Below, piece after piece: positions 21,038 through 58,843 of a DNA stretch of 64,000 bases. The stretch is from Marsupella aquatica (taxonomy: Eukaryota; Plantae; Marchantiophyta): assembly GCA_973895155.1 (NCBI GenBank), contig OZ316899.1:16457974-16521973 (forward strand). Direction: 5' to 3'. Below the pieces are notes generated by a model. The model did no database searches, was not told where the DNA came from, and saw only the letters and a program-made list of their open reading frames with translations. The position numbers and the translations under genes were made by a program. Position 1 is the first letter of the stretch. Every line of letters starts with the position of its first letter.

Positions 21038-21052
21038 CTCGTGCTGATAACG
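21038..21052 (-). promoter_or_regulatory. Copia primer-binding site (internal half-tRNA-iMet type)
   Basis: CGTTATCAGCACGAG immediately after the 5' LTR, without a TGG start; this PBS type is characteristic of Bianca. Confidence 0.75.
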
Positions 21053-21251
21053 TATTCAGAGACAAGAAGATGAGAGTAGAACATACACCAAAACTGGAGG
21101 TTCCCTCCAACTTCCATTACCTTATAGAGTCCCTAAGGACTCGATCTATTACATGCGGTTAGGTTGTTAGTAACAACCTAAGCTTCGGTTAGTTAGGACT
21201 AACTAACCCTACTATTATGACTCGGGTTAGTGTTAACTCCATATTACAACA
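21053..21251 (-). repeat. Copia 5' LTR (199 bp)
   Basis: Direct repeat of 15272-15471, followed by TSD TAGGC. Confidence 0.95.
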
Positions 21252-21505
21252 TAGGCATTATTTGCTAGGGTACAAGGTAATCTTTCATACTGATCATGAA
21301 AGTTTGAAATACCTAGTGAATAAGCCAGACCTTACAGGCAAGGTAGCAAGATGGATATTGCTATTATAGGAATTTGACTACGAGCTAAAAATCAAGCCGA
21401 GAAAGCTTTAGGGTTTAGGGTTTGTTTGCTGTTGTTTTTGCTTACAATTTAGCCTATAAATCCACTACCGGTCATACCCCCTTTTTCTTAACCTTTGGAT
21501 AAAAA

Positions 21506-23907: not shown

Positions 23908-24219
23908 ATAAGCATACGTATAGACATATGCACACCGTAGCGCTAGGCCCTGTGTGTACGGACCCGATATGAAGACCCCTTCTCACCAGAACTATCATGA
24001 GCACAGGGTCTGATTCCCAACCTTGGTTCCTAGGGATTGAGCTTTGATGATGTGTGATAGAGTCTTGCTATGATAGTCTGGTGTTAAGGGCATAAACTGG
24101 TGTTTACCAACCTTCACAGCATCCCTTTGTGATCCTCAGGTACAAGGAGATGGTTTTGGCACCCAATAGTGATGTTTTTGGTGTTAAGACCCATGTCAAT
24201 CGCGTGACACTGACAGACG

Positions 24220-24415
24220 ATTAACTAGGAAGTTATGGGCGTTGCCAGTTGGTGGCGTGCCCATACATGCGAGATAGGGTTTGGGTTGGGGACCAAAAGT
24301 TTGGGGACCAAAGGTGATCCAGGGGTGGCAAGTCTCCAGAAGCATATATGAGGGGAGTGGTGTCTCCCTGGGGGCTAAGGGCAAGCCCGAACTTGTGAGT
24401 CGCGGTGGTCGTGAG
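24220..24415 (+). repeat. Fragment of family X LTR
   Basis: Reverse complement of ~32420-32610, including the GCATATATGAGGG TATA-like motif. Confidence 0.8.
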
Positions 24416-24451
24416 TGGTGGGCCTAGCCACCCAACGCCCTCACCAATCCG

Positions 24452-34600: not shown

Positions 34601-37048
34601 AAATAGGCCTTGGGAGAATGGGCATAACTTTGGCTAGGGGTATCCGTTGGGGCCCAAATGTTTTTGTGCTGAGTTAGGGGAAGGTAAGGCACCCCTTGGT
34701 GAAGGTGGAAACCCAGAAAAATAATCACTCAAATATATTTTTAGCGGAGGCCACGAGGGGGTCCCCATAGCTTGCAAACGGGAGTTGGCATGGGGGAAGT
34801 AAGACCAGGTTTTTAGGCTGACACTTCTTGCACCCGTGTCACCCAAGTTAGGATACATGGAGAAGAGCGTACCTCAGGGTAAAGGTGCAAGGCCGTTAGG
34901 GTAAGGAAAGTAAGTTGATAGGTCGGGGTAGTAAGTAAGAACTAGTAAATAAGGAGCCAACTTTGACATGACACAACTTGAGACTCACTCACTCTTTTTG
35001 CGAGCTTTCAAGTGGGTTGGGAAGCTGGTGAGGAGGACCATAAGTGAGAGCAGGTTTGGAGGTCAAAGCATGCAACTCATGTGTGGCATATTCCAGGGCT
35101 TGGAAGGAGTCAAGCAATAGGTTGTAGAGTGAGCTACAAACTATAGAGTTGGACTTTGTGTGTTAGGAGGAATTGGGGGAGGAGTAGTTGGACCCCAGGT
35201 CAAGCTTGGTGTGGTGTGAAAGGAGAATAGTATATAAGGAGAAAGTTTTCCTTTGTTAGGGACCGGGAGTCTCATCTCTTAAGTGGAATCTCTACCTTGC
35301 CAAGGTAGGGCTAAGCTTGAGAAAGGAGAGGTGGTCCATGTTTAGTGTGGAGAATGTGTAGTGAACTTTTGTTGTAAAGGTGATACAATAAAAGGAGACT
35401 TGCCAATCTTCATTGTGACCATTAAGTGTGAGTGCATTTGAAGCATATGAGAGCAAGAGAAGAGTCCATGCTATGATGTAATCTTGGTCTAAGCTTGAAG
35501 GGGATGTGCTAGTACAAAACCAAGGCCAAGAGGCAAGGTTAAGGTAGAGCACTACTTTGAGACTTAGAGAGGATTATAGCTTGAGGGTGGAAAGTATTTT
35601 GCTTGGTGTGTGGTGTTAACAAGAAGTAAGAACAAGAGGAAGAGTCCTTAGATAGAGGAGCCTTCTCTAGAGCTCAAAGGGGATGTGTGGACCCAAACCA
35701 AGGCCAGGGGGGCAAGGTTGAGGGGTAACACTACTTTGAGGGTCTTGAGGAGACTTAAGCTTGAAGAGGAAAGTACTTTGGTTCTTGGGTGTTTGTGTGA
35801 GACTCTTCTCTAAGGTGACAGCTTGGAGCGGAGATCCCCCTTGCTGATCCTTGGAGTAGAGGAGAGGGGAAGGGTGCGAGTACAAAAGTAGTCAAGGGGA
35901 CTACCTCTCTAGAAGTGCAGAGTTGAAACTACTTATGTGTCACTTGCCTCTCCAACGGTTAATACGTGCAAACCGCACTTTTCTTCGCTTAAACCGTTGG
36001 TATCGTATTACGGGGTCGTGGAGGGACGCTATTTGGATTCTTTTCACACCAGGATGAGTATTTTGGTTTCCGCTCCCGGAAATGTAGGTTTTGATCAAGT
36101 CTACCGACTACCCTCACCCCACAGCTTTTGATCAAGTCCTGCCGACTACCCCACTACACCTTCACTCGGAGTCACCCAAAGAGTGCTGTCACCACCCCTA
36201 CTCACAAGGCCGACTCAAACCAAGCAAGTTTCTTCAAATCATAGAACGGGAGAACACAATTCGGAAAGCGAAAAAGGGAGAAGGAACACACAACAAAAGC
36301 CCATCAAGTCAAATGTACAGATCCATATCTCTTGGGAAAAACGATACACATTGCATGAGTAACCCGGCCTCCTGCCGTCTACTCAACTCCTGCCTCTCCG
36401 GACAATGAGTATGGCTCCCCCTCACTACTCTGAACACGCTTTCAAACTCCTCAGGCTCCACTCTATCCCTCCTTGCTAACTTCACACTGAGTCCCCCTAA
36501 CTACTTCGGGGCTATCCCCCTAAATACTGAAAAATCACACCAAAGCACCCCTCACAGGGTCACAACGGTGGCGGCTACCCTAGCGGCGCCGCTAAAACCT
36601 TGCACTAAGAGAAATCCTTAAACTGAAGAGGAGCATGCGGCACACACATGCTGCTAAAACCCTAAACCCAAAACAAGGGGGCCGACGGTGCCTTCGACGG
36701 CGCCCCAACAGTACACGTGAACCCTGAAAGTGAGAGGCACCCCAAAATGGCCGAAACTAGGTGCCCTTCCAAGTGCACACCTGAGCTCACCCCTGGATAG
36801 CTCTTCTTTTCCTGCTTCCGAATCACTAAGTCGCTCCCTCAACGGACTTCAGACGCCTGAGTTATGGCCGTTTCCGTACCGCAAAAACATAAGTTCTCCA
36901 GGCCATAACTTGCTCATCCTGGCTCCGTTTGAGGAGCGCCGCCTCTTGTTGGAATCAGCTCCGCGAGCTCATCCCAACAAGCCCATGAGTGACCCCCCAC
37001 TAAAATGTTGGAAATCTGGAGGCCGTACACCCACGTCCGTACGCCTAT

Positions 37049-38905
37049 CTAATCCTCCTCTTCTTCTTCGCTCTCGGTGCCCGGACTTGTGCCCCGTGAG
37101 TGGTCCTCCTCCTCATCACTCACGGGAGTGAGTGCCACCGTACTTTTCTTCTTCTTCGACGGAGTACTCTTAGTGCTGCTGCTCCCGCGCTTCCTCAAAG
37201 CAGCCAAGGCCTGCCACGCCTTGATGTACCCCTCACCAATTGTGTCCTTCCAGAGGGTAGCCTCTTCTCCGGACCGCAACTCCAACGGTAGAACTTGCCC
37301 CGTGGCCATGGGAGTCCCGGGGGTGACAGACCTGGGTGGCATCCCCGTACTGACCTGAGCCTCCCGTAACGATTTCCGTACCTCCCGGAGCTTCTTCTCC
37401 AAGCTCTTACTCTTCTCCTGACTCTTCTTGGCTCCATCCAACAAGGGTCCATACTTCCCACTAACCTCCTTCACCACCATCTCGATAGCTTGGGAGATCA
37501 CATCCGGGGAAAGTGTGGAGCCAGGTGTGCCGGGACTCTTCCGTTTCCCTAGACTCAGGGCCTCACTTCTCTTCGCTCGTGTCTCAAAGGCTGCCACCTG
37601 ACTCCGTAGTGCTCCCACCTGGTTCCTCCACTCCATCACTTCTCCAGAATTTTGCTTCTCTTTGGCCAATGCTTGCCTCAACGCTCCTACTTCTTCTGCT
37701 TCCTTGGCCTTGGTGGACAAAGCTCCCTTCAAGTTGGTGATCTCTACGTGAGCTGCATTGATGTGCCTGACCTTCTCATGAATGGTCTGCTCCTTGGTCT
37801 TGATCACCTCCTTCAGTGACAGGATGCTCTGCTCTAACGTCTCTACTTTGACTGTGGCGTGCTTGAGAGACTCCCTCAATGCGTGGACTAGCTTGAGTCC
37901 CTCGTGGACTCCCTCTCTGAAATCCCGTAGCTCTACCAAGTAAACATCCGGAATGTTGTATTCCAGAGGCTGTTTCGGATCTCCCACGAGTGATTCAAGC
38001 CACTCCAATGTGCAATCATCCTCCTGGTTCTCTTCTTCTCTATTATCCTCCCCACCAGCAGACAATGATTCCTCCGTGAGCTTCCCTAAAACGGTAGTGG
38101 CAATACTCCGGATCTCCGTGGTGAGAGATGATCCCGTGTCTTCATGCCCCGGAGAACCAATCAACCCTTCTGCCCTGGCCAATACAAATGACCCCATCAA
38201 ATGTACAGCCCCACCTGGTTTCACACTCCCGGGCTCAGCGGCCAATAGCTTCTTCAATCCGTAGCACCACCATCCGTACACATGGGCTGGGTAGTTCTTG
38301 ATGTCCATAGCTACCACGAAATGCTCCTCATTCAGCACTCCGGATTGCACGTTGCCAAGAACCCGTTGATGCACCTTGGCCAGGAAGCCCTTATACTCAA
38401 CATCCTTGACAGCAGAAAGAGGGATGGCGGTGGTGGAGGTAGGATTGGTCACCCAAGTGGCCACCATTTTCAACGTGAGTTCTCCCCTGATATTCCGAGG
38501 TGTGAATGAGAATTTCTGATTCTCAAGAAACAATAGCTTAGCCAACTCCACATGGGGCACTACACGTTTGAGACATTCAAAGTAGATTCCCTCCGTTCGG
38601 AACTCCATCCCGGCCTCAATGTCCCAGCTCTTCCCTGAAGGGATGGTAATCTCCACCTTCATGAATTCTGTAAGCCCGGTGGCTTGGAAAATGTTCCGAC
38701 AATCCTCCATCACCTTGGTGGAGGTCTTGGGATAAATTCGACGAAAAATCTTCCTACCCACCGGTGAGGAACCCGCTGCCAATCCCGTGCTCATCATAAC
38801 TTCTCTCTCTTCCCTTTCCCGTGTAATCCGAGTCTCCACGTAGTCACGGTAAGCAGCCTTGTATCTCCGAATGCGTGACGCACTAAACTCTGGTTGATCT
38901 AGCAT
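37049..38905 (-). CDS. LTR-encoded 618-aa accessory protein (3' LTR copy): globular N-half, acidic linker, coiled coil, basic NLS-like motifs, acidic tail
   Basis: Long open frame in the same sense as gag-pol; heptad-rich segment (aa ~340-440), GKRKSP and SKKKKS motifs; wholly within the LTR. Confidence 0.88.
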   Translation of the reverse strand: MLDQPEFSASRIRRYKAAYRDYVETRITREREEREVMMSTGLAAGSSPVGRKIFRRIYPKTSTKVMEDCRNIFQATGLTEFMKVEITIPSGKSWDIEAGMEFRTEGIYFECLKRVVPHVELAKLLFLENQKFSFTPRNIRGELTLKMVATWVTNPTSTTAIPLSAVKDVEYKGFLAKVHQRVLGNVQSGVLNEEHFVVAMDIKNYPAHVYGWWCYGLKKLLAAEPGSVKPGGAVHLMGSFVLARAEGLIGSPGHEDTGSSLTTEIRSIATTVLGKLTEESLSAGGEDNREEENQEDDCTLEWLESLVGDPKQPLEYNIPDVYLVELRDFREGVHEGLKLVHALRESLKHATVKVETLEQSILSLKEVIKTKEQTIHEKVRHINAAHVEITNLKGALSTKAKEAEEVGALRQALAKEKQNSGEVMEWRNQVGALRSQVAAFETRAKRSEALSLGKRKSPGTPGSTLSPDVISQAIEMVVKEVSGKYGPLLDGAKKSQEKSKSLEKKLREVRKSLREAQVSTGMPPRSVTPGTPMATGQVLPLELRSGEEATLWKDTIGEGYIKAWQALAALRKRGSSSTKSTPSKKKKSTVALTPVSDEEEDHSRGTSPGTESEEEEED

Positions 38906-39328
38906 CCATGCATCCCAAAATCAATTTCTCAATCACCAATCCCGTCACCCGTGGCAATGTCAATTCCCTGGCCCGAAACAGCCCCCGTAGCCCGATCACT
39001 TAAATTCTCTCAATTTCCCGTCACTACTCCGTGCGGCCGCCACTAATGCCTGGAAGAATGACGCCAGCAAGCCCCACTAATCCACCATGAAAGAGAGAGC
39101 TTCAAAAATAATTAGAATCTGGAGAGAGCTTCCGGCAAGAGAGAGAAGAACCCCGTTTTTGCTTTCGGCAATGAGAGGGTCGTGCAAAAGGAAGAGGGAA
39201 AGAAAAAGGAAGGAAAAAAAAATAGAACCGAAAAAACTCCTGGCGCCTTCGCCATGCGCCCCGGCCCATTTCTCGGGCCTTACCCTTGCGTCCTCCTGCG
39301 CGCGGCCCTATGCAGGGCGCGCGGCCAT

Positions 39329-39652
39329 TCCTCCCGGCTCGCGGGAGGCCCTTCAACTCCCCCCCGCTCGCGTGATCCTCCCAGCTCGCGGGAGGCCCTT
39401 TAACTCCCCCCCGCTCGCGTGATCCTCCCAGCTCGCGGGAGGCCCTTTAACTCCCCCCCGCTCGCGTGATCCTCCCAGCTCGCGGGAGGCCCTTTAACTC
39501 CCCCCCCCCCGCTCGCTTGCGCTCCTTCAGCTCGCGGAGCCTCATTAATTGCCCGGGCACGCAGCCCTATGGGCTCGCGAGGCAGCCCCTTCAGCTCGCG
39601 GAGCCCCATTAATCGCCCGGGCACGCAGCCCTATGGGCTCGCGAGGCAGCCC
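39329..39652. repeat. GC-rich tandem arrays in 3' LTR: 4 x 47 bp + 2 x 64 bp
   Basis: Unit TCCTCCCAGCTCGCGGGAGGCCCTTTAACTCCCCCCCGCTCGCGTGA; second unit CTTCAGCTCGCGGAGC...GGCAGCCC. Confidence 0.93.
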
Positions 39653-39980
39653 CTCTTTCTCTCGGACGGCCACTAATGGGACTCGCCCTCCTGAGGAGGG
39701 ATTTATTTAAAAAAAAACCCCCCCCTCTCCTGACTTTGCAATGGGGGTCTCAACAATAGCTCTTGAAGCAAAACGGTAAGTCCTATGGGGCTGGTCCTGG
39801 CTAGTTTCAAGGTCCCAAAATATTTGCCCACTTAGGTCGCCGCAAATCTTAGAACTATTATGAGAGAAAGAATATAAAGTCACCTGGGGCATCATCAACC
39901 TATAATGACGGAATTAACTAAAAATTAAAAAATGGCTTATTTACATTGACTATTAACAAGGTATCGGCCTTTGCAACCAG

Positions 39981-42900
39981 TTATGTGTGACTTCCCGTGA
40001 CGGGGTACCCGTCACATAGCTCCTCTCTTAATTGCGAAGCGCCCCCGCGAGCACCATACTCTTCCTCCGTGTAGTACTTCTTTAGGCGCTCTTGATTGAT
40101 CCGTGTGTTGAGTAGTTGCCCCTCCAATGTCTTGAGTTGAACCGAGCCGTTGGAGTAGACGGCATCCACTACGTAGGGTCCCATCCACCGTGTATGCAAC
40201 TTCCCGGGGAAATGCATGAAGCGGCTATCGTAGAGGAGCACCAAATCTCCCTCCTCAATGGACACACGACGGAGACGGGAATCGTAATGTGACTTGCGTT
40301 TGCCTTGCTCCTGCTCCGTATGTGTCAAAGCCTCTTCTCGTGTCTCCGTGAGTTGCTCCAACTGTTGGATCCGTGAAGCGACACTTTCTTCTGCCCCTTC
40401 CCTTTCCCGTGTTAGGATTCGAATGGTTGGAACCTCAAATTCCACCGGCACAAGAGAGTGTTGTCCAAACACAAGGAAATAGGGGCTGTGGCCCGTGGTA
40501 GTCTTGTGAGCCAGGTTGTAAGCGTAAGTGGCAGCCAACAACTTCAAATCCCAATCGGTCTTGTGAGCGGATACCGTTTTGTTGAGGATCTTGCCCATGA
40601 TCCCGTTGGCTCTCTCAGTGAGCCCGTTGGCTCGAGGGTGGTACGGAGTGGTCTTCCTATGTGAGATCAAGTAGTTCTCCGTCAAACGTTCAATCGTATG
40701 ATTGAGGAAGTGAGTACCCCTGTCACTTACCAACTCCAATGGTGGACCAAATCGTGTAAAAATCTGCTCATACAAAAAACGTGCCGTGGTGTTGGCATCA
40801 TCCTTGGCAGTAGCTCGGGCCTCCACCCACTTGGTGGCATAGTCCGTTGCAAGAATGATGTAGCGCTTCCTCCCTCTTCGTGTGATGGGAGTGAAAGGGC
40901 CAATGAAGTCCACCCCCCACTTCTCAAAGGGTGCAAGAGGAAGTATGGGCACCAATGGGTGTCGTGAGGAGGGCCCTGGTTTGCCTTGACGCTGGCACGG
41001 ATCACATCGCTGGATGTACCGGTGTACATCCCGAAAGAGAGTTGGCCACCAATATCCAGCATCTAGTATTTTCCTTGCGGTGGTCTCCCGTGCAAAGTGG
41101 CCACCAGCTTCCTCCTCATGTAATGCTGCCATGACTGTACGTATCTCCGCTTCCTCCAAACAACGACGAAGTCGGCCATCCATGCCGTACTTGTGAAGTA
41201 CTCCCTTCACAAGCAAGTAGGGACCTGTCTTACGCAAAAACACTGCTGCTCTCTCCGGGCCCAAACGTGAGGGAACTCTAGCCGTGCGGAGAAATTCCAA
41301 AATTTCTCCATACCAAGTAGTGGCCTCTGTATTCACGCTGAACACTTCCTCATCCGGGAACCGATCATCAATCTCCTGGGAGTCAGATGCTCCCTCAATA
41401 CGGGAGAAGAAGTCTGCATTGCTATGACTCTTCCCCGATCTTACTCTCACCTCATAGTTGAACTCTTGTAGCAACAAAACCCAACGTGCAATTCTCCCGG
41501 ACAGATCTGGCTTGTTGACCATGTATTTCAAGCTGTTGTGATCCGTGTGGAACACAACCTTGTACCCCAACAAATAATGACGATACTTCTTACAAGCGTA
41601 GATGATACCAAGTGCCTCCCTATCGGTGGGTGAGTAGTTTTTCTCTGCCGGGGCCAACTGCCTACTGGCAAAGTAGATGGGATGGTCTCTTCCATCATCA
41701 TCTAACTGACTCAAAACGGCACCGATGCAAAATCCTGATACGTCTACGTAAACATGGAATTCCTTATTCCAATTGGGCGTAATGAGCACGGGGGCCTCTA
41801 GCAATCGTTTCTTCAATTCATCAAAAGCAGCCTGACGGGAAGGAGTAGGTTCAAACTCACTTCCTTTTTTCAACATGGAAGTGAGTGGCATGGCTACCTT
41901 GGCAAAGTCTTTGATGAAGCGTCGGTAGTAGCCAACACACCCCAAGAACCCTCTCACTTCCTTCACATTCTTGGGAAATGAGACTGCTACCCACACGGCG
42001 ACCTTCTCACGATCAACTTCAATCCCTCGTGCAGACACTTTGTGGCCCAATAGGATTCCCTCCTCAATTCCAAAGAAACATTTCTCCGGATGCAGCTTCA
42101 GGCAAGTCTCCCGGCACCGCTGAAAAGTCAACCGTAAGTGTTCCGGATGCTTGACTCGTTTGCCGTAGACAGCAAAGTCATCAATAAAGATCTCCAAGAA
42201 CCTGCGTAAAAAGTCATGAAATATATTCATCATGAGCCGTTGGAACATGCCAGGGGCATTGCACAACCCAAAAGGCATTCTCCGGAATGCAAAAATCCCC
42301 CACTCTGTTGTGAAAGCCGTCTTGAGTTGGTCCTCCTCCCGTATCCAGATTTGGTTGTACCCAGAGTAGCCATCCAAGAAGCTGTATATCTCCCAACCTG
42401 CTACCATGTCCAACACGATATCCGTGAACGGTAGCGGGTAGTGATCCTTCTTGGTCGCATCATTCAACTTTCGAAAATCTTGGCACACCCGTATTTTCAC
42501 CTTCCCGTCTGGCCCCTTTTTCTTGGGCACGATTACGATGGGTGACACCCACTCACTATGCATGACCGGATAAATGAATCCTGCATCCAACAAACGGTCA
42601 ATCTCCTCCTTCACCATGAGTGAGTATTTGGGGTTGAGGCGGTATTGGCGTTGCCTCACAGGTCGTGCTCCTGACATCAGGTCAATGCTGTGCTCACCAA
42701 ACTCAGGTGGCACTCCTTTCAAATCTTGGTGGCTCCACGCAAATACGTCTTGGTACTCTTTCAACAATTCCTGAATCGTGCGTTGCTCCGTAGCATCCAA
42801 CTTACTACCAATGTTGAGTGTCTTGCCCTCACCCACTTCCACCTTTGTGTACTGCTCCGGCCTGATCACGTCCAACTTGTTGCGTGTCTCCTCATCAAAG

Positions 42901-45900
42901 GTTTCTTCCAACCGTGCGAGCCTCATCCCTCCATACACCGGTGCATCACTCTCCTCCTGGTCTGGTCGGGATGGAGGTGGATCCTTTGTCACATGGGCCA
43001 TTATTTCTTCAACGTCAGATTCTTTGTAATGTGACAATAGCTCCTCTCTAAAGTCATCATCCAGGATGTCATTCAAAAACTGCTCTCTTTGCTCATCATC
43101 AAACATGATCGTGTGGGCTTGCATTTCCACCTCCTCGGGGTGATCCTCTGCCTCCCTATCATGAATCTCTAGAGGTTCAGCCTCCACAATTTTGCTTCGC
43201 TCGTCTTCCATCTCTTCTAGAACAGCGTGCACTTGGCTAACTGATTCCTCTACTGCATGCTCTTGAGTAGCAACTCCGGGGCCAAAAACATCTTCCTCCG
43301 TGAGGTGAGAAATCAGTTTCACCATGTATACTTCATCCTCGTCTTCATCTGAGGTGACCTCTGAATCATATTCCTCCTCCATAGTCGTAGTCTCCCCGTG
43401 AGGTGACTCCGCTGACCATGGAATAGTGATAGTGGGGATACCAAACCGAAACTGCCGTTTGCCCCAATCACTTGTGACCTTGGCCACATACAACCATGGC
43501 CTGCCAATTAAAATGGGAAAACCGTACGGCCGAACGGGTCGCATCACCAAATAGTTGAGGGGGAAAGATTTTCCCCCAATCATTGTTGGAATCTTGGTGA
43601 GACACCCCAACGGCACCACCCGTGCACCATCAGCCAACCTCATGGCACGTGCCGGTGGTTCTAACTCTGTATACCCCAACCGGTTTGCCGTCTCCTCAGT
43701 CATGATGTTGACTCCCGAGCCCCCGTCCACCGGTACAAACCGTATTGCACATCCATTGATGTCCACCGTGAGTTCTGGGGCACCCAAATCCTCCGTGACC
43801 CAGTTGACTTGTATGGGGTCAGCCCCAACTTTGGGTAACCTTCTTCTACGTCTCCTCCTCATGAGAATCTCCTTGACTTGGCGACGGTATAGGGAGCTAT
43901 CCCGTAATAGTTGACCAATTGTGGCACTGACTGGGCAATCCAGAATGTCTTGAGCAATGTTGTACGCGGTTGCAGGAGGTATGGGTGGGATGACCTCTTC
44001 TCCCGGTTTCCAACGAACAACCCTCTCCTCCGCTTTCTTTCTGGCCTTTGCCTCCTCCATGTCTTTGTCAATGGCCGCTTGCATGGCTTGTGCTTCTAGC
44101 TCCTCCAACTGCTTACGTACCTCTTCTCCCACCTTCGGATAGAACAACTTGGGGTTGTCCCGATCAAAGTCACTATCCTCCATGGGTGGCACCTCCGGTT
44201 CGTGTGAGGTACCCGATGTGGAAGCTTGATGCACCTCCTTGTACTTCTGCTTGAGCTCGGACTTGCCCTTCTTTTTGCCGGATCGAGTGGAGACTCGGTA
44301 ACAAGAGTAATGCCTTCTCTCCTCGTCGCTGTCTTCCTCCGGTAGATTCTCAGCATGAGTCCACTCATGACTTGGGGGTGAGGGGTTAGCAACTTCAACT
44401 TCCGTAGATGTTGCAACAACAACCACCGGTATCTCAACAACTGGAGATACTACAACGACTAGCGGTACCACCTCCTCCGTTATGGTGGTCATCCTTTGCT
44501 TGGGAATGTTCACTACGGTTTCTTCTCTTCTAGTGATTAGAGGGGTGTCGACTGCTTCCGTGGTGAGAAAGTTGACGCTAGCTTCTTTCAGAGGAGGTGG
44601 CGGCCCCTTCTTCTCTTGTGCCCCAATCGGTTGAGCCTTGAACGCCTCCAAGGTTGGGCAGTGTGGTGCAAGATGACCCTCCCCCTTGCATAGTTGACAC
44701 AGCCGGGCAAAATCTCCATTGCCTTGACGGGTGGGCTCTGGGCACACATTAGCGTAGTGGCCCGCCACTCTACAATTGTAACAAATAGGGATCTTCCTCA
44801 CTCCAGGGTACGGTGGTCGATTCCCTGGGTTAGCGTTGGGATAGTTGGAGTATGCGGGTGCTCCGGCGTTTGTTGAAACTCCATGAATGCTCCGTGGTCC
44901 CGGGTTGAGAGGTTGTACACTATACACGTTGGCCTCTGGTGGCTCCTCCATGAAGTACTCTATTGGCCCTTCCGCTGCATATGAAGGATTTGAGTAGCTT
45001 GCCCCCTCAACATCCTCCTCCCGTACTTGGAAAACCTTGGCTGGTTCTCCCGCTGGGCACTCCTTCGGGGCATGACCAAACTTCATGCACTTGGTGCACC
45101 ACACATTGGCTCTCTCCACCGGAACTTTTCTCCTCTCAGGTTTGAGTCCGGCAAAATGTACTTTCAACGCTTTCATTTGCTCCGTCAGCTCATCATATCT
45201 GGCCTCTTGCTCCTTCAGGCGTCTTGCCGTAGACAATGGTGTAACGGCCACCGTGGGTAGTATCACTTCACGGTGAGAGGACTTCTTGACTTTCTTTGAC
45301 AACTTCTTCTTCTTCCTCCTTCGTCTTTCAGCTTCTGACTCCGTAGTGTCTGACTCTGTAGTACTCTCAGAATCCTCAGATTCATCACTACTATCTGAAT
45401 CAGATCCACTCGACTCCTCACTGGAGGAACTGTCAACCGGCTTCAGCTTCTTTCTTCGGCAACGCTTGCTTGTGGCATCAGCTGCGGTGTATGACTCCGC
45501 TGCTGCAATAGCTTCAGCCAATGTGGTTGGCTTGGCTTGACGTACAAAGAACCCCATCTTGCTTGGTAGGGCAGCCACAAACCAGGCTTGACGCATAGCA
45601 TCATCGGTACGGGCTTGGATCCGACGTACCAGCTTTTGGAACCTTTGCAAAAACCTCCGTAATGACTCCTTCTTCTTCATCCTGAGTTGGCCCACCTTTA
45701 ATAGTGAGGTGGCCTCCACTCCTATGGATCTGAACTCCTTCAAGAAGGCTTGCTTGAACAGAGCCCAATCAGCTTTCACGTTGGCCAACAACGAAATGAA
45801 CCATGGACCTGCCTCCCCTCTCATCATTCCAGGAATGATAGTGAGCTTATGTGCAGACTCCCCATTAGCTTCGGCAATCCCTTCAAACTCCTCAATCCAT

Positions 45901-46379
45901 TCGTCTGGATCATCCTTTGGTCTCCCCTTGAAGGGTACGTACTGAACACGGGTACGTTGTGCAGCTGCCATCGGTGCAGCCGGTGCCTGTATCAACACAG
46001 GTGGTAATGGCGCTTGTTGGGCCACCGGTAACAGCACCGATGATAGGTGTGAGATGATTTGTGGCAATGCAGTGAGCTCTGGGATCAGATTTTGTAACTC
46101 AGACTGCACCAACACAAAGGGCTCTCCTTCTTCTCGCTCGTGATCTATGTCTGGCTCTTCGTCTGGGCATATGGCCTCATTACGTTGAGCCTCTTCCTGT
46201 TGCACACCAACTTGTTCTTCCAGCACCAGTGGCAACCTCCTCTCTTCTGCAAGCCGTAAGCGTTCTTCGGCAGCAACTCGTCGTCTGGTCCCAATCCAAG
46301 AGGGCCCCCCTTCTAGCTCTGATCTTGGGGTACGTGTGTGTTGGGGACTTCCTCTACCTCCCCTTCTCCCTCTCGGCAT
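39981..46379 (-). CDS. gag-pol: Gag-Pol polyprotein (2132 aa): gag, 3 CCHC knuckles, aspartic protease, RT, RNase H, integrase with GPY motif
   Basis: CTKCMKFGHAPKEC / CYNCRVAGHYANVC / CQLCKGEGHLAPHC; VDGGSGVN; IFIDDF; VDVSGFCIGAVL; HEEEAGGH..CDPC; VDFIGP..SDRG..TERAN; WMGPY. No stops; the stop codon lies inside the 3' LTR. Confidence 0.97.
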   Translation of the reverse strand: MPRGRRGGRGSPQHTRTPRSELEGGPSWIGTRRRVAAEERLRLAEERRLPLVLEEQVGVQQEEAQRNEAICPDEEPDIDHEREEGEPFVLVQSELQNLIPELTALPQIISHLSSVLLPVAQQAPLPPVLIQAPAAPMAAAQRTRVQYVPFKGRPKDDPDEWIEEFEGIAEANGESAHKLTIIPGMMRGEAGPWFISLLANVKADWALFKQAFLKEFRSIGVEATSLLKVGQLRMKKKESLRRFLQRFQKLVRRIQARTDDAMRQAWFVAALPSKMGFFVRQAKPTTLAEAIAAAESYTAADATSKRCRRKKLKPVDSSSSEESSGSDSDSSDESEDSESTTESDTTESEAERRRRKKKKLSKKVKKSSHREVILPTVAVTPLSTARRLKEQEARYDELTEQMKALKVHFAGLKPERRKVPVERANVWCTKCMKFGHAPKECPAGEPAKVFQVREEDVEGASYSNPSYAAEGPIEYFMEEPPEANVYSVQPLNPGPRSIHGVSTNAGAPAYSNYPNANPGNRPPYPGVRKIPICYNCRVAGHYANVCPEPTRQGNGDFARLCQLCKGEGHLAPHCPTLEAFKAQPIGAQEKKGPPPPLKEASVNFLTTEAVDTPLITRREETVVNIPKQRMTTITEEVVPLVVVVSPVVEIPVVVVATSTEVEVANPSPPSHEWTHAENLPEEDSDEERRHYSCYRVSTRSGKKKGKSELKQKYKEVHQASTSGTSHEPEVPPMEDSDFDRDNPKLFYPKVGEEVRKQLEELEAQAMQAAIDKDMEEAKARKKAEERVVRWKPGEEVIPPIPPATAYNIAQDILDCPVSATIGQLLRDSSLYRRQVKEILMRRRRRRRLPKVGADPIQVNWVTEDLGAPELTVDINGCAIRFVPVDGGSGVNIMTEETANRLGYTELEPPARAMRLADGARVVPLGCLTKIPTMIGGKSFPLNYLVMRPVRPYGFPILIGRPWLYVAKVTSDWGKRQFRFGIPTITIPWSAESPHGETTTMEEEYDSEVTSDEDEDEVYMVKLISHLTEEDVFGPGVATQEHAVEESVSQVHAVLEEMEDERSKIVEAEPLEIHDREAEDHPEEVEMQAHTIMFDDEQREQFLNDILDDDFREELLSHYKESDVEEIMAHVTKDPPPSRPDQEESDAPVYGGMRLARLEETFDEETRNKLDVIRPEQYTKVEVGEGKTLNIGSKLDATEQRTIQELLKEYQDVFAWSHQDLKGVPPEFGEHSIDLMSGARPVRQRQYRLNPKYSLMVKEEIDRLLDAGFIYPVMHSEWVSPIVIVPKKKGPDGKVKIRVCQDFRKLNDATKKDHYPLPFTDIVLDMVAGWEIYSFLDGYSGYNQIWIREEDQLKTAFTTEWGIFAFRRMPFGLCNAPGMFQRLMMNIFHDFLRRFLEIFIDDFAVYGKRVKHPEHLRLTFQRCRETCLKLHPEKCFFGIEEGILLGHKVSARGIEVDREKVAVWVAVSFPKNVKEVRGFLGCVGYYRRFIKDFAKVAMPLTSMLKKGSEFEPTPSRQAAFDELKKRLLEAPVLITPNWNKEFHVYVDVSGFCIGAVLSQLDDDGRDHPIYFASRQLAPAEKNYSPTDREALGIIYACKKYRHYLLGYKVVFHTDHNSLKYMVNKPDLSGRIARWVLLLQEFNYEVRVRSGKSHSNADFFSRIEGASDSQEIDDRFPDEEVFSVNTEATTWYGEILEFLRTARVPSRLGPERAAVFLRKTGPYLLVKGVLHKYGMDGRLRRCLEEAEIRTVMAALHEEEAGGHFARETTARKILDAGYWWPTLFRDVHRYIQRCDPCQRQGKPGPSSRHPLVPILPLAPFEKWGVDFIGPFTPITRRGRKRYIILATDYATKWVEARATAKDDANTTARFLYEQIFTRFGPPLELVSDRGTHFLNHTIERLTENYLISHRKTTPYHPRANGLTERANGIMGKILNKTVSAHKTDWDLKLLAATYAYNLAHKTTTGHSPYFLVFGQHSLVPVEFEVPTIRILTREREGAEESVASRIQQLEQLTETREEALTHTEQEQGKRKSHYDSRLRRVSIEEGDLVLLYDSRFMHFPGKLHTRWMGPYVVDAVYSNGSVQLKTLEGQLLNTRINQERLKKYYTEEEYGARGGASQLREELCDGYPVTGSHT

Positions 46380-46596
46380 CCCATTGAGACCTGCATTCCA
46401 AACTTACACCAATGTCTCAGAAAGCAATATTTGTAAACATCAACCGTCGCACGATGCATTGTGGTTGACGTACAATAACAAAGTAACCAACAAACTTCTC
46501 ACGTATCAACCGTCGCAAGTTGCGTTGTGGTTGATAGGTTTGAACTCCCAATAGACGTAGCTCCCCTCCTTCGTGTCGTCAAACAAGAAGAAGGAT

Positions 46597-46614
46597 TCCC
46601 CGGCAGCGGTGCCA
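46597..46614 (-). promoter_or_regulatory. Primer-binding site, tRNA-Asp-like (Athila type)
   Basis: TGGCACCGCTGCCGGGGA vs canonical TGGCGCCGTTGCCGGGGA (2 mismatches); 20 nt from the LTR end. Confidence 0.8.
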
Positions 46615-47745
46615 AAAACAAAAGACCACACTTATGTCACTTGCCTCTCCAACGGTTAATACGTGCAAACCGCACTTTTCTTCGCTTAAACCGTTGGTAT
46701 CGTATTACGGGGTCGTGGAGGGACGCTATTTGGATTCTTTTCACACCAGGATGAGTATTTTGGTTTCCGCTCCCGGAAATGTAGGTTTTGATCAAGTCTA
46801 CCGACTACCCTCACCCCACAGCTTTTGATCAAGTCCTGCCGACTACCCCACTACACCTTCACTCGGAGTCACCCAAAGAGTGCTGTCACCACCCCTACTC
46901 ACAAGGCCGACTCAAACCAAGCAAGTTTCTTCAAATCATAGAACGGGAGAACACAATTCGGAAAGCGAAAAAGGGAGAAGGAACACACAACAAAAGCCCA
47001 TCAAGTCAAATGTACAGATCCATATCTCTTGGGAAAAACGATACACATTGCATGAGTAACCCGGCCTCCTGCCGTCTACTCAACTCCTGCCTCTCCGGAC
47101 AATGAGTATGGCTCCCCCTCACTACTCTGAACACGCTTTCAAACTCCTCAGGCTCCACTCTATCCCTCCTTGCTAACTTCACACTGAGTCCCCCTAACTA
47201 CTTCGGGGCTATCCCCCTAAATACTGAAAAATCACACCAAAGCACCCCTCACAGGGTCACAACGGTGGCGGCTACCCTAGCGGCGCCGCTAAAACCTTGC
47301 ACTAAGAGAAATCCTTAAACTGAAGAGGAGCATGCGGCACACACATGCTGCTAAAACCCTAAACCCAAAACAAGGGGGCCGACGGTGCCTTCGACGGCGC
47401 CCCAACAGTACACGTGAACCCTGAAAGTGAGAGGCACCCCAAAATGGCCGAAACTAGGTGCCCTTCCAAGTGCACACCTGAGCTCACCCCTGGATAGCTC
47501 TTCTTTTCCTGCTTCCGAATCACTAAGTCGCTCCCTCAACGGACTTCAGACGCCTGAGTTATGGCCGTTTCCGTACCGCAAAAACATAAGTTCTCCAGGC
47601 CATAACTTGCTCATCCTGGCTCCGTTTGAGGAGCGCCGCCTCTTGTTGGAATCAGCTCCGCGAGCTCATCCCAACAAGCCCATGAGTGACCCCCCACTAA
47701 AATGTTGGAAATCTGGAGGCCGTACACCCACGTCCGTACGCCTAT

Positions 47746-49602
47746 CTAATCCTCCTCTTCTTCTTCGCTCTCGGTGCCCGGACTTGTGCCCCGTGAGTGG
47801 TCCTCCTCCTCATCACTCACGGGAGTGAGTGCCACCGTACTTTTCTTCTTCTTCGACGGAGTACTCTTAGTGCTGCTGCTCCCGCGCTTCCTCAAAGCAG
47901 CCAAGGCCTGCCACGCCTTGATGTACCCCTCACCAATTGTGTCCTTCCAGAGGGTAGCCTCTTCTCCGGACCGCAACTCCAACGGTAGAACTTGCCCCGT
48001 GGCCATGGGAGTCCCGGGGGTGACAGACCTGGGTGGCATCCCCGTACTGACCTGAGCCTCCCGTAACGATTTCCGTACCTCCCGGAGCTTCTTCTCCAAG
48101 CTCTTACTCTTCTCCTGACTCTTCTTGGCTCCATCCAACAAGGGTCCATACTTCCCACTAACCTCCTTCACCACCATCTCGATAGCTTGGGAGATCACAT
48201 CCGGGGAAAGTGTGGAGCCAGGTGTGCCGGGACTCTTCCGTTTCCCTAGACTCAGGGCCTCACTTCTCTTCGCTCGTGTCTCAAAGGCTGCCACCTGACT
48301 CCGTAGTGCTCCCACCTGGTTCCTCCACTCCATCACTTCTCCAGAATTTTGCTTCTCTTTGGCCAATGCTTGCCTCAACGCTCCTACTTCTTCTGCTTCC
48401 TTGGCCTTGGTGGACAAAGCTCCCTTCAAGTTGGTGATCTCTACGTGAGCTGCATTGATGTGCCTGACCTTCTCATGAATGGTCTGCTCCTTGGTCTTGA
48501 TCACCTCCTTCAGTGACAGGATGCTCTGCTCTAACGTCTCTACTTTGACTGTGGCGTGCTTGAGAGACTCCCTCAATGCGTGGACTAGCTTGAGTCCCTC
48601 GTGGACTCCCTCTCTGAAATCCCGTAGCTCTGCCAAGTAAACATCCGGAATGTTGTATTCCAGAGGCTGTTTCGGATCTCCCACGAGTGATTCAAGCCAC
48701 TCCAATGTGCAATCATCCTCCTGGTTCTCTTCTTCTCTATTATCCTCCCCACCAGCAGACAATGATTCCTCCGTGAGCTTCCCTAAAACGGTAGTGGCAA
48801 TACTCCGGATCTCCGTGGTGAGAGATGATCCCGTGTCTTCATGCCCCGGAGAACCAATCAACCCTTCTGCCCTGGCCAATACAAATGACCCCATCAAATG
48901 TACAGCCCCACCTGGTTTCACACTCCCGGGCTCAGCGGCCAATAGCTTCTTCAATCCGTAGCACCACCATCCGTACACATGGGCTGGGTAGTTCTTGATG
49001 TCCATAGCTACCACGAAATGCTCCTCATTCAGCACTCCGGATTGCACGTTGCCAAGAACCCGTTGATGCACCTTGGCCAGGAAGCCCTTATACTCAACAT
49101 CCTTGACAGCAGAAAGAGGGATGGCGGTGGTGGAGGTAGGATTGGTCACCCAAGTGGCCACCATTTTCAACGTGAGTTCTCCCCTGATATTCCGAGGTGT
49201 GAATGAGAATTTCTGATTCTCAAGAAACAATAGCTTAGCCAACTCCACATGGGGCACTACACGTTTGAGACATTCAAAGTAGATTCCCTCCGTTCGGAAC
49301 TCCATCCCGGCCTCAATGTCCCAGCTCTTCCCTGAAGGGATGGTAATCTCCACCTTCATGAATTCTGTAAGCCCGGTGGCTTGGAAAATGTTCCGACAAT
49401 CCTCCATCACCTTGGTGGAGGTCTTGGGATAAATTCGACGAAAAATCTTCCTACCCACCGGTGAGGAACCCGCTGCCAATCCCGTGCTCATCATAACTTC
49501 TCTCTCTTCCCTTTCCCGTGTAATCCGAGTCTCCACGTAGTCACGGTAAGCAGCCTTGTATCTCCGAATGCGTGACGCACTAAACTCTGGTTGATCTAGC
49601 AT
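47746..49602 (-). CDS. LTR-encoded 618-aa accessory protein (5' LTR copy)
   Basis: Identical to 37049-38905 except one residue (VYLAEL vs VYLVEL). Confidence 0.88.
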   Translation of the reverse strand: MLDQPEFSASRIRRYKAAYRDYVETRITREREEREVMMSTGLAAGSSPVGRKIFRRIYPKTSTKVMEDCRNIFQATGLTEFMKVEITIPSGKSWDIEAGMEFRTEGIYFECLKRVVPHVELAKLLFLENQKFSFTPRNIRGELTLKMVATWVTNPTSTTAIPLSAVKDVEYKGFLAKVHQRVLGNVQSGVLNEEHFVVAMDIKNYPAHVYGWWCYGLKKLLAAEPGSVKPGGAVHLMGSFVLARAEGLIGSPGHEDTGSSLTTEIRSIATTVLGKLTEESLSAGGEDNREEENQEDDCTLEWLESLVGDPKQPLEYNIPDVYLAELRDFREGVHEGLKLVHALRESLKHATVKVETLEQSILSLKEVIKTKEQTIHEKVRHINAAHVEITNLKGALSTKAKEAEEVGALRQALAKEKQNSGEVMEWRNQVGALRSQVAAFETRAKRSEALSLGKRKSPGTPGSTLSPDVISQAIEMVVKEVSGKYGPLLDGAKKSQEKSKSLEKKLREVRKSLREAQVSTGMPPRSVTPGTPMATGQVLPLELRSGEEATLWKDTIGEGYIKAWQALAALRKRGSSSTKSTPSKKKKSTVALTPVSDEEEDHSRGTSPGTESEEEEED

Positions 49603-50025
49603 CCATGCATCCCGAAATCAATTTCTCAATCACCAATCCCGTCACCCGTGGCAATGTCAATTCCCTGGCCCGAAACAGCCCCCGTAGCCCGATCACTTAA
49701 ATTCTCTCAATTTCCCGTCACTACTCCGTGCGGCCGCCACTAATGCCTGGAAGAATGACGCCAGCAAGCCCCACTAATCCACCATGAAAGAGAGAGCTTC
49801 AAAAATAATTAGAATCTGGAGAGAGCTTCCGGCAAGAGAGAGAAGAACCCCGTTTTTGCTTTCGGCAATGAGAGGGTCGTGCAAAAGGAAGAGGGAAAGA
49901 AAAAGGAAGGAAAAAAAAATAGAACCGAAAAAACTCCTGGCGCCTTCGCCATGCGCCCCGGCCCATTTCTCGGGCCTTACCCTTGCGTCCTCCTGCGCGC
50001 GGCCCTATGCAGGGCGCGCGGCCAT

Positions 50026-50302
50026 TCCTCCCAGCTCGCGGGAGGCCCTTTAACTCCCCCCCGCTCGCGTGATCCTCCCAGCTCGCGGGAGGCCCTTTAA
50101 CTCCCCCCCGCTCGCGTGATCCTCCCAGCTCGCGGGAGGCCCTTTAACTCCCCCCCCCCCGCTCGCTTGCGCTCCTTCAGCTCGCGGAGCCTCATTAATT
50201 GCCCGGGCACGCAGCCCTATGGGCTCGCGAGGCAGCCCCTTCAGCTCGCGGAGCCCCATTAATCGCCCGGGCACGCAGCCCTATGGGCTCGCGAGGCAGC
50301 CC
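50026..50302. repeat. GC-rich tandem arrays in 5' LTR: 3 x 47 bp + 2 x 64 bp
   Basis: Same units as 39329-39652, with one fewer 47-mer. Confidence 0.93.
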
Positions 50303-50954
50303 CTCTTTCTCTCGGACGGCCACTAATGGGACTCGCCCTCCTGAGGAGGGATTTATTTAAAAAAAAACCCCCCCCTCTCCTGACTTTGCAATGGGGGTCT
50401 CAACAATAGCTCTTGAAGCAAAACGGTAAGTCCTATGGGGCTGGTCCTGGCTAGTTTCAAGGTCCCAAAATATTTGCCCACTTAGGTCGCCGCAAATCTT
50501 AGAACTATTATGAGAGAAAGAATATAAAGTCACCTGGGGCATCATCAACCTATAATGACGGAATTAACTAAAAATTAAAAAATGGCTTATTTACATTGAC
50601 TATTAACAAGGTATCGGCCTTTGCAACCAGTTATGTGTGACTTCCCGTGACGGGGTACCCGTCACATTATGTATGGAGTGATTAGTCATTGTAGGCACAT
50701 TTCAGAAGTTTTGTCAATTCTTTGTGACCCTGGTATGATATGGAGCAGGTATTAGGTAGTCTTTTGGGGAGAAAAGCCGCTTAAGCTCCTTGACAAGTGT
50801 TTGACACTCGCTAGTGCCACGTCTCATTGCCCGCAAGTCTCCCCATGCTAAGTCCTCCCTGGATGGCCTATCCAAGCCTGGACCATAAGGGAGCTCATCG
50901 TCGGAGTCAACGACGCCGGAGCTAAGTGTTAAGGTAGTTGAGTTCCGCGACTCA

Positions 50955-55550: not shown

Positions 55551-58500
55551 ATGACCACGGTGAATCAAGCGGCTAAGTTCTGGGGCTGTTTGCTTGAAGA
55601 AGCACGGCAGCTCATACCAACTTACGAAGACGTCGAGCCGGAACGAGTAGCAAGGGAACGGGTAAAGCTTGCGCGGTTACAGGGAATTCATAAGACGGTG
55701 TTTGTGGGAACGGAGGAGGTACTTGAGAAATTTGTATGGATTCCCACCAGTGCCGAGCTTGACAAGTTGCTGATCAGAGAGAATTGAGTCGTTGGAATTC
55801 GGGAGGCGATTAAGAACGCTGGACAGCCGGTGTGGGAGTTGAAGGGTCACACTTTGGCTTGGACCAAGGAAGCCATTCTTGGAGAGTTCTCAAGAATTGA
55901 AGAGATAATGCGTAAAGGTAGTTTGGCGTCTGCAACACCAGCTAAGCAGAATCGATCGGAGAGGCAGGCCAAAGCTGAAGCCGTGCCAGTTCGTGATAGG
56001 GCAATGGAGGATAAGTTTATGACGGGTTGGGCGGATAAGCTACCTGCCGACTTACAACTATAGTTCGCACAAGAAGAAGATGAGGTCTTCTGTGCTATCT
56101 AGGATAACAAGTATTCTGGATACATGAACGACACCGACTTAGAGGGATTCATTTGGTTACCATGGCGGTTAATTGACATACCAGACAAAGATCTGTTAGA
56201 CTTTGTAGGATGCTGGGAGGCTTCTTCTAACACGACACTGATGTATGGAAAGGTGGTGGAATTAATGCCAGCACTAATTGAAGCCGTCTTTGCTCTTCCA
56301 CAAGGGAATAAACTAAGGTGGAGCAGCGAAAGACTTTGCCGGATAATCAATTCCGATCATTTCCAGGGCCCTCTACTAAGAATGGGTTCTTTAGAAATCA
56401 ATGCACTAATCCACATGTGGGGCAGTTGATTGATTTCTTACGAGTCACGCTACACTATACATTGCCGAGAGCAGAGATCGGCAAAGCCCAGGTATTTTTG
56501 GTGGAGAATATCGATTCAAGCCGAGACTACAATGGCTATCTTTTAATGCAGTTAAAGAAGGCATTGAATGAAGAGAAGCAGAGTATTGGGGAAGGAGCGG
56601 TATCCAAAATAGGGTACCATCTGCAATTACCTTGCCGATATGCAAGAAGCCAGTCTTTTGCACCCGTTTTACCACTACAGGAGAGGATGGCGATTACAGC
56701 ACGGGTGGAGGAGGAGGACGAGCAGCCCCTGAACAAGCGACAGCAAGAGAAGAGGTCGGAAACACCGGCAGTCCAGGGACGGGAGAATAGGCCGGAGTGG
56801 TGGACATATGATGTGGTGAGAAATCCATTGCGACGGCCTACTCGTAATAACCCATATGCAGGTATTCAACTGGTAGAGAGGAAAATGACTGCCAAAGAAA
56901 GAAAGAAATGAGATGAGCAAATGGATTTGGAGTCAGAAGATGGAAGTCGAGGCCGTAGTCAAGAGAGGCCAGTCCTTAGAGTTTCTAGTCGGGCCCGAGT
57001 AGAGGAACCGGTGGAGGTAAATCAACTAGTGGCAGCCCAACAATACTCAGTGGAGGAGATTGGGGGCTTTACAGAAGAGGCCGACATGCTCGGTAGTCAG
57101 GTTAATGTGGATGACTACGACGAGGATTATGTCGATCATGGGGAGAGACCGGTGCCAGGAGTGAGAACGTTGGGAAGGTTTTGTAGAAGACTTCCCTTAG
57201 TCTTTTATGGCAAGCCAGAGGATCAGAAAACCCCAGAGTCTCCTCCACCGGACGTGACACCATTGGAATTTGACCAAATGAAGGAAGCCGAGGCAGGTCT
57301 GAAGGAGAAAATTGACAAGTGGAGGGCCCCAAATGACATACAAGAACAGCAGCTACCAGGCGGTGATTGGCCGGAGGAAATAAAACGGCTTAGTGAGAAG
57401 CAAGCCGCGCCTCTCACTGACTTTGATCAGTTACGAGCAGAAGCTTGGGAGAAACGGCCTCGTTGGCAGATGCTAGTATCACCTGGCAGGTCAAAATATG
57501 CGACGGATCGGGCTAGGGAGAGTGGAGACATGTGTGGACTGCTAGCCTTAGAAATCTTTGGCAATGAGTTAGAATCCAGACCATTTCTTAGAAAGGAAAT
57601 GGCTGACCAAACAAGGTTGGAGGAGGCAATGACGTTGGAGCGATTAAAGAAAGAAGAGGTAATCGCTTGGCTTTGCTCCATGGAAGCCGAAGTTGCTAAG
57701 ACAAAGTTTGATCAACAAGCTCAGCAGGATCTCTTGGCTAAGCAGCAGGAATTGGAGGTGGCGAACAACCAAGTGGAAAACTACGAATTGGATAACCAGC
57801 AGATCAAGGAAAAATTGACAAAGGTAGAGCTGGAGTTAGCCGATTCAAAAGTAGAGGTACAGGGTCTAAATCGCCAAGTCAAGAGGCTCAGAAAGACGGC
57901 AAAGGACCAGGCCACCCAGAGCGAGAAAGCCTTGGGAGAAGCCCAAAGGAAGTATGACAAGTTACTCGACCGGTTGGAGGCCATGCAAGAGAAGCACGAG
58001 GACGCCACGTGCACTGCGGCCAATGATCACCTGAGCCGAGTTCAACAGATATGCAAGGAGCTACAGGAGGAGATAACCCGGACAAAGCAGGCATGGACGG
58101 ATGAGGTCACAAAGCTGGAAAGCATCAACGATTCCTAGAGAGCCGCTTTGGATAAGCAGGAGTTTGAGATTGTGCAGATCTTAAACGAGGAGCTCAAGAC
58201 GGCCAAAGAGGAGGCGCATCGGCTCAATGAGGAAGTTGAGGATTTATCCCAAGAGCTGGAGGAGGCCAAAGACAAGATGATCGGCTTGTAGAGGCGTGCA
58301 AATAATCAAATAGAGAAGTTGTGGAAGTATGCCGAAGCCGGGCACGGATCACCAACTGGACAATCTCCCGCTAGTGGCGTGGTAGCCGGGAATACTGAAG
58401 TGCCAAAGTCAACATCTATATTGTCAAGAGTAACTGGGGGTAAGGTAATGCAGTTGGTAGCAGATCTGGCCAAAACATTCATGGGGCCAGCAGGTACTGC

Positions 58501-58843
58501 TGGGGTACCTCTCAAGGCCACTCTAGAGGAGGTTGAGAGTATGGTTGCTCACATTTGTGGGACTGTTGCTATGAAGGCAGCCATGGTAGAGATAAGTAAT
58601 GCCGATGAACTTGGAGCTGCGGTAATAGGTTCAGACACCGGTACAGCCACCATGGACTACCAGAATGTGAAGCCATGGAAGATCGATACCAAACGGATTG
58701 GAGAGCAGGCTTGGATTGAGGAAGTAAAGGCCAACGCTATCCAAGCCGTTTCCCAAGAAGATGCTGCTGCCGCTGCCGATGCCGGGGCCGATAAATCAGA
58801 ACCCGAGGTCGAGGAAGCCGAAGGAAGATCAAGCCGGAGCTGA
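55551..58843 (+). pseudogene. Decayed ~1090-codon retrotransposon accessory ORF with long coiled coil
   Basis: ORF pieces 55551-55787, 55830-56063, 56124-56429, 56318-56911, 56921-58138 and 58319-58843 are collinear, separated by single stops and about one frameshift. The VELMPALIEAVFALPQG motif resembles Gypsy extra-ORF proteins. Confidence 0.65.

Follow-up and report, generated by a model that had tools for sequence, protein, structure and literature searches.

Element anatomy and lineage

We analysed a 64,000-nucleotide window (contig OZ316899.1, positions 16,457,974 to 16,521,973; 'the window' denotes this whole stretch), which holds a Ty3/gypsy retrotransposon with a complete accessory gene inside each of its two long terminal repeats (LTRs). 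The element lies on the minus strand, as do all of its stranded features given below. Self-comparison of the window returned one direct repeat of 4 kb. Its copies are the 5′ LTR (46635..50666, 4,032 bp), which contains tandem arrays and the accessory gene, and the 3′ LTR (35938..40016, 4,079 bp). Both have TG...CA ends, and the element is flanked by a perfect 5-bp target-site duplication (TSD), CATAA, with its left copy in element orientation at 50667..50671 and its right copy at 35933..35937. The primer binding site (PBS; 46597..46614) lies 20 bases past the LTR end and matches the tRNA-Asp PBS of FIDEL, printed in PMC2844528, at 16 of 18 bases. A leader of 255 bases separates the LTR/PBS side from the start codon of gag-pol, a single intact open reading frame (ORF; 39981..46379, 2,132 amino acids) in which Pfam recognizes Gag, zinc knuckles, protease, reverse transcriptase (RT), RNase H and integrase. 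The polypurine tract (PPT) in use (40020..40029) is found within the end of pol, 3 bases ahead of the 3′ LTR, and the final 36 bases of the ORF are within that LTR; therefore, the internal region that would follow pol is absent. Two LTRs with TG..CA ends, TSD, PBS, PPT and the domain order GAG-PR-RT-RH-INT together identify the element as Ty3/gypsy. A tandem or nested-insertion artefact was ruled out, as the 4-kb LTRs are bracketed by TSD, PBS and PPT.

The two LTRs differ by 2 substitutions and by one additional 47-bp unit in the 3′ copy. At substitution rates of 0.9-1.3e-8 per site per year this divergence corresponds to about 20,000-28,000 years, and at 1e-9 to 250,000 years, none of these rates being specific to the host. 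Judged by its sequence, the element is a very young insertion.

Lineage was assigned by TSD, PBS, ORF layout and RNase H (PMC6317226, Additional file 5). The element fits an Athila-like assignment in all four respects: like Athila in REXdb, it has a 5-bp TSD, a tRNA-Asp PBS and neither a chromodomain nor an extra RNase H (no Pfam match to either in the 2,132-residue ORF). Phygy and Selgy were rejected, since they require a 4-bp TSD and a tRNA-Trp or tRNA-Ala PBS, and Tat (Ogre, Retand) was rejected for want of the additional RNase H. In a quick, unfinished RT-RNase H tree of 41 rows, built with 35 of 120 proteins and 5 loci picked by hand and without REXdb references, the element groups with a Riccia protein and environmental sequences in a clade of 14 rows (support 97), outside the 13 angiosperm rows. 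The DNA itself points to a bryophyte host.

The accessory gene and its product

The 618-codon accessory ORF lies entirely within each LTR in sense orientation to gag-pol (5′ copy 47746..49602, 3′ copy 37049..38905, with one amino-acid difference between them), and is therefore present twice per element. A search of 1.84 billion representatives revealed 13 homologues, comprising four Calypogeia fissa proteins and nine fragments that, at 43-62% identity, tile the protein from start codon to tail; a fifth C. fissa homologue was found separately. A single-sequence search with the protein found no homologue among 7,994 candidates, and the viral and prokaryote genome collections held no relatives of either the accessory ORF or pol. 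Contigs from 4 of 6 listed runs were aligned to 46380-49850 for variant analysis. Among the best 40 of 533 variant rows, 9 of the 12 variants in the accessory ORF are silent, against 23% expected, but 10 of these 12 fall in one 60-base stretch and so are not independent, which counts against reading the excess at face value. Among the best 12 of 61 indels, 11 lie outside the ORF and the sole one inside is 3 bases long. In two runs, exact-match pieces cover ORF and LTR evenly, about 2.0 and 2.3 times as deeply as the internal part. Depth cannot be equated with copy number, and a run may itself be the source of the window, but the ratio is in keeping with an accessory ORF carried by both LTRs in the majority of copies. 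Taken together, conservation along the whole length and the silent-change excess make the gene look selected.

The protein appears to consist of a globular domain (residues ~57-245; 48868..49434), predicted coiled-coil helices (residues ~320-520; 48043..48645) and a C-terminal part (47749..47985) in which a conserved helix (~540-575) is followed by a basic patch resembling a nuclear localization signal (NLS), S/TP sites and an acidic tail. NLS-like patches, S/TP motifs, a coiled coil and an acidic tail had been noted in the initial, sequence-only reading of this DNA, and each was recovered. Basic patches occur at residues 454 (KRK), 504 (KKLR), 571 (RKR) and 584 (KKKK); S/T-P sites number 11, where 2,000 shuffles gave 4.1 ± 1.8 (p 0.001); the tail (residues 595-618) has a net charge of -11. 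Long helices are predicted at residues 320-451 and 467-520, where coiled-coil Pfam matches are generic, weak and below cut-off. The same reading had denied the protein an envelope-like character, rightly so: the highest 19-residue Kyte-Doolittle mean is 1.09 and the N-terminus is hydrophilic, hence neither a transmembrane segment nor a signal peptide is apparent, and an envelope-like protein was rejected.

A loose resemblance of the N-terminal half to Athila ORF2/Transposase_32-type domains had also been proposed. It gains indirect support from predicted structure and none from sequence. An Atlas feature search with residues 40-255 placed ATHILA (0.84, 17% of members) and Transposase_32 (0.83, 56%) in the top three, at the level of a lead. 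Clearer matches came from a Calypogeia homologue, P0012, which is 28% identical to the window domain over 189 amino acids (pairwise E 9e-20; library-wide E 6e-12). The Atlas model of its residues 10-208 matches clusters of Transposase_32 (template-modelling (TM) score 0.67), ATHILA (0.69), PMD (0.64) and DUF1985 (0.58), with 8 of 10 rows at TM ≥0.58 and the remaining two at ≤0.33. DUF1985 is the domain of VANC proteins, and PMD resembles it (bioRxiv 2024.09.27.615353; PMC13547354).

Several results tell against this assignment. Pfam names no domain in the protein, and the Transposase_32, ATHILA ORF-1 and PMD families give no match above the curated cut-off. A profile scored 14.7 against three Transposase_32 regions, within the range of 30 decoys (10.0-26.7), and sequence searches of the PDB returned nothing below E 0.2. 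Structure prediction followed by Foldseek, the test suggested at the outset, gave little for the protein itself: the models have a predicted local distance difference test (pLDDT) value of 51.8 for the domain and 44 for the full length, and searches of PDB and BFVD with Foldseek, and VIA-align, using the pLDDT-52 domain model gave no clear match and were uninformative. All P0012 rows are below the Atlas bar for naming a family, and the link to the fold passes through this single homologue and through predicted models. On balance, we consider that the N-terminal domain probably has a PMD/DUF1985/Transposase_32-type fold.

Tandem arrays, related elements and proposed entry of the gene into the LTR

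Two tandem arrays sharing a GCTCGCG core precede the accessory gene, starting 424 bp from its ATG, much as first described. The 47-bp array (50026..50156) has 2.8 copies, and 3.8 copies in the 3′ LTR (39329-39506); the 64-bp array (50174..50304) has 2.0 copies and a 3′ LTR counterpart at 39524-39654. Each unit, of 47 or 64 bp, carries two GCTCGCG-type sites (two exact GCTCGCG in the 47-bp unit), and the units have in common a core of 34 columns, an alignment equalled in score by 4 of 2,000 shuffles. The window contains 24 GCTCGCG sites where 1.9 would be expected, and 23 of these fall within the element. The motif is near-palindromic. Beyond the ORF stop it occurs in opposite orientation, where an imperfect palindrome centred on it (47642..47678) lies about 70 bp past the stop; a lone copy (40046..40052) sits immediately upstream of the PPT.

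The arrays would be the promoter region of the accessory gene, and a pyrimidine-rich stretch lies about 0.3 kb upstream of its ATG. Among the patterns scanned, the only TATA-like hexamer in the non-coding LTR is TATTTA (47218..47223), after the accessory ORF and about 590 bp from the LTR 3′ end, a candidate promoter of genomic RNA. If genomic RNA starts there, past the ORF, the accessory gene lies in U3.

The arrays had been said to keep their CpGs. They do, with an observed/expected ratio of 0.89 compared with 0.58 in the accessory ORF and 0.64 in gag-pol, but retention is not specific to them, because the array-ORF spacer (0.96) and the 5′ leader (1.04) are equally high. CpG retention as a sign of present demethylation was therefore rejected, the copy being moreover too young.

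An integrase scan yielded 80 metagenome loci related to the element, of which 10 were examined closely. L003 (integrase 59% identity) is a collapsed 10.7-kb unit whose 742-residue ORF is flanked by two PPT-like tracts, one directly after pol and a second that precedes TG, an LTR of roughly 1 kb and a PBS of the Asp type. In L001, L004 and L007 the tract after pol is followed by TGT; the ORF of L004 begins about 430 bases past the tract, a candidate LTR-internal site in a locus where only one LTR was seen. In L006 (1650-4713) an accessory-like region with a coiled coil and an acidic tail is fused in frame to the integrase end of pol. Since these ORFs have no sequence link to the window protein, those of L003, L004 and L006 are positional analogues only; tblastn with eight accessory proteins found no match at E 0.01 in the 80 loci.

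The sequence-only reading had named covariation of ORF and repeat motif across subfamilies as a check. Distinct CG-containing motifs were indeed found. Of 7 non-pol regions, 5 have a top CG 7-mer that exceeds at least 99 of 100 Markov shuffles, namely GCTCGCG in the window element (tandem copies included), AGCGCTA in L003, a GAAACCG-type motif in L004 and L007, and RGTCGAC in L006; L006 was also the only one of 4 pol regions with such a signal. The 11 copies of AGCGCTA in L003 form separate clusters (637-685, 5124, 6748-6796 and 7992-8024) in the pol linker, the accessory-ORF linker, the LTR and the leader, a VANC-like pattern cleaner than that of the window element.

The layout of L003 bears on how the gene came to be in the LTR. 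About 45 bp past the accessory stop and about 1.05 kb from the LTR end, the window element has a T-run and G-run resembling the PPTs of the family (47687..47702), a candidate relic PPT. On the simplest reading, the gene would formerly have stood between pol and a 1-kb LTR; plus-strand priming would then have shifted to the purine tract with which pol ends, and the LTR would likely have taken in the gene as part of U3. As the last 1.1 kb of the window LTR has no nucleotide similarity to the L003 LTR, the case for a relic PPT is one of position and motif only.

Candidate functions, counterparts and minor observations

Because a predicted VANC-type fold is combined with motif arrays beside the gene, the reading that we prefer, tentatively and by analogy, is VANC-like self-activation. 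VANC proteins target family-specific motifs amplified in tandem repeats and oppose silencing (PMC5735166). Here, the protein would be made from U3; its coiled coil would oligomerize it so that several motifs could be engaged at once; and it would enter the nucleus, bind the GCTCGCG-core repeats of its own element in both LTRs and hold off host silencing as VANC does. VANC and the Athila domain have been modelled as coiled-coil oligomers (PMC13547354). A more far-reaching version, in which the LTR has a complete VANC-type anti-silencing cassette of sequence-specific protein and target repeats built in and sister bryophyte families have protein-motif pairs of their own, seems to us doubtful.

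A number of findings weigh against self-activation. Once tandem copies are collapsed, the 2,028 non-coding bases hold 5 motifs, a number that falls short of significance: in a test on the collapsed copies that allows for motif choice, the top 7-mer count reached at least 5 in 50 of 300 Markov shuffles. Among the related loci, L002 (7 of 100 shuffles) and L005 (51 of 100) have no clear CG motif, the motif of L006 is spread across the whole element, coding parts included, and profile comparisons revealed no significant sequence link between the window protein and the accessory ORFs of L003, L004 and L006. Family-specific tandem repeats without known function are described as common in related lineages (PMC11963269). 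Finally, a shared fold does not demonstrate function, and the available text on PMD proteins states their direct DNA binding as undemonstrated (bioRxiv 2024.09.27.615353).

Despite a PMD-type fold, the protein might instead act on the RNA or cDNA of the element, helping to export or package it, to import it into the nucleus or to tether the integration complex, the arrays being an ordinary GC-rich promoter read by host factors. Such roles have been proposed for retrotransposon accessory proteins (PMC7264820), and the accessory protein of a nematode element exports genomic RNA. The basic patches and coiled coil fit this equally well, the GC-rich, CpG-retaining DNA reaches past the arrays, and two hairpin repeats in the leader could serve as RNA signals. 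We nevertheless hold it to be fairly unlikely: the fold has two characterized members, VANC and MAIN/MAIL, both of which work on chromatin at short DNA motifs (bioRxiv 2024.09.27.615353; PMC5735166), and the motif is near-palindromic and recurs in opposite orientation past the ORF stop.

Slightly less probable again is a nuclear chromatin regulator that works through host partners, as MAIN/MAIL1 does with PP7L, and has its target motif elsewhere, so that the arrays are not recognized. PMD-C proteins oppose Polycomb silencing, their direct DNA binding being stated as undemonstrated (bioRxiv 2024.09.27.615353), many host contacts are predicted for accessory transposon proteins (PMC13547354), and the enrichment of the motif is mostly due to tandem amplification. 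What speaks for self-activation over host partners is that different CG motifs cluster near the accessory gene or LTR in related elements, for which matched protein-motif pairs are the easier explanation. A passenger, envelope-like or structural protein, with LTR placement and arrays as replication accidents, is improbable: tandem arrays do arise readily in such regions (PMC11963269) and array copy number is already unequal between the two LTRs, but the silent-change excess, frame-keeping indels, conservation at 43-62% identity over the whole protein and the missing transmembrane segment and signal peptide all argue otherwise.

Among the closest counterparts are the Athila eORF-3′F proteins (PF03078 / PF20167). 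Shared with them are a sense accessory ORF after pol in a non-chromovirus, the 5-bp TSD, the tRNA-Asp PBS, a single polyprotein ORF, the missing extra RNase H and, according to the models, the fold; sunflower Athila 14 likewise has NLS-like patches (PMC11728184). The window element differs in that its accessory ORF has no Pfam match and is inside the LTR, hence present twice, with the internal region after pol missing, and in that its RT-RNase H groups with the Riccia protein in the quick tree, outside the angiosperm clade. VANC of the Mutator-like VANDAL transposons resembles the window system in a predicted DUF1985/PMD-type domain followed by a coiled coil, and in a short, putatively family-specific motif tandemly amplified within the same element (PMC5735166). 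Differences are the carrier, here an LTR retrotransposon, the lack of a DUF1985 sequence match and the CG-rich motif, compared with YAGTATTAY for VANC21 and AGTTGTMC for VANC6; moreover, VANCs are described as dicot-specific (PMC13547354), and binding and demethylation are putative for the window protein.

MAIN, MAIL1 and MAIL2, which unlike the window gene are host genes, share the predicted fold and have promoter motifs, one of them palindromic (M2M) (bioRxiv 2024.09.27.615353). Ogre elements also encode PMD-A (bioRxiv 2024.09.27.615353; PMC6317226), but with PMD ORFs that mostly run antisense within the internal region (431 of 434 hits; PMC6317226). In Retand, the TRP28 ORFs are accessory ORFs that have coiled-coil parts and adjoin family-specific tandem repeats, and a regulatory DNA-binding role has been proposed (PMC11963269). 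These ORFs differ in being antisense and internal, with another Pfam domain, in elements that have LTRs of 315-1,194 bp and occur in angiosperms only. Outside plants, retroviral U3 genes (MMTV sag, the HIV nef overlap) are placed in or at an LTR and copied to both ends, and the foamy-virus Tas protein activates its own LTR; these are unrelated animal-virus proteins, and the analogy is one of layout only.

Accessory ORFs of unknown function are present in thousands of plant LTR retrotransposons (PMC6317226). Published descriptions place them within the internal region, either before or after gag-pol (PMC7264820, PMC6317226), and a regulatory role for them is already in print (PMC11963269, PMC11728184, PMC12844716). 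Athila-type accessory ORFs are thus known, and it is the position of the gene in both LTRs that departs from the described ones. In the literature searched, which covered few subscription papers, we found neither a plant element whose two LTRs both harbour an intact gene nor a retrotransposon VANC-fold protein tested for anti-silencing. PMC12844716 calls it an open question whether accessory ORFs influence their own epigenetic state. Here, a predicted VANC-fold gene and its candidate target array lie within 0.5 kb of each other in one LTR, which brings the question within reach of a test using a single protein and a single 47-bp probe. Provided the fold is right, its use by transposons extends back to bryophytes, and this bears on the suggestion that host MAIN-like genes gave rise to VANC (PMC13547354). 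A gene inside the LTR would also outlast solo-LTR formation, normally disabling to an element. Should the cassette be real, every insertion would carry two copies and each solo LTR would persist as a gene that sustains itself and can reactivate the family in trans; many unexplained accessory ORFs of Athila, Ogre and Retand would gain a function, and the anti-silencing role of the fold would date well before eudicot VANCs.

Some minor features of the element complete the picture. The 20-base spacer between LTR end and PBS (46615-46634) is longer than the 9 bases in FIDEL (PMC2844528); a folding prediction has it base-paired to the LTR end (z -1.8 for the region). Two 30-base leader repeats (46439-46468 and 46505-46534) form the same hairpin and are possible packaging or dimerization signals; overall, the region folds no better than shuffles. 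Neither the window nor the metagenome loci contain a tRNA-Asp gene for direct comparison with the PBS, an Rfam scan gave a single match, judged to be due to chance, and a sigma-70 promoter scan was disregarded as irrelevant to plant DNA. Of the words sampled from the LTR (46635-50666), 73-94% are present in runs of three organism codes, which may reflect close relatives, shared labels or recent horizontal spread.

Other elements also occupy the window. At 56124-58843 on the plus strand, several broken ORFs with a coiled coil follow one another and may represent an accessory gene belonging to a different element. By eye, the beginning of this chain resembles a PMD, but Pfam and profile tests (the latter of 56124-56426) were negative. 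At 4845-8013 (plus strand) and 1979-2851 (minus strand), CACTA transposase remnants (Transposase_21, DUF4218) adjoin an oppositely oriented ORF with two BRCT domains, possibly a captured or a host gene. Further remnants are Ty1/copia (16100-20700, minus strand), a more distant gypsy element (24700-28000, minus strand) and a decayed relative of the same gypsy group (10920-15390, plus strand), 66% identical to the element over RT-RNase H.

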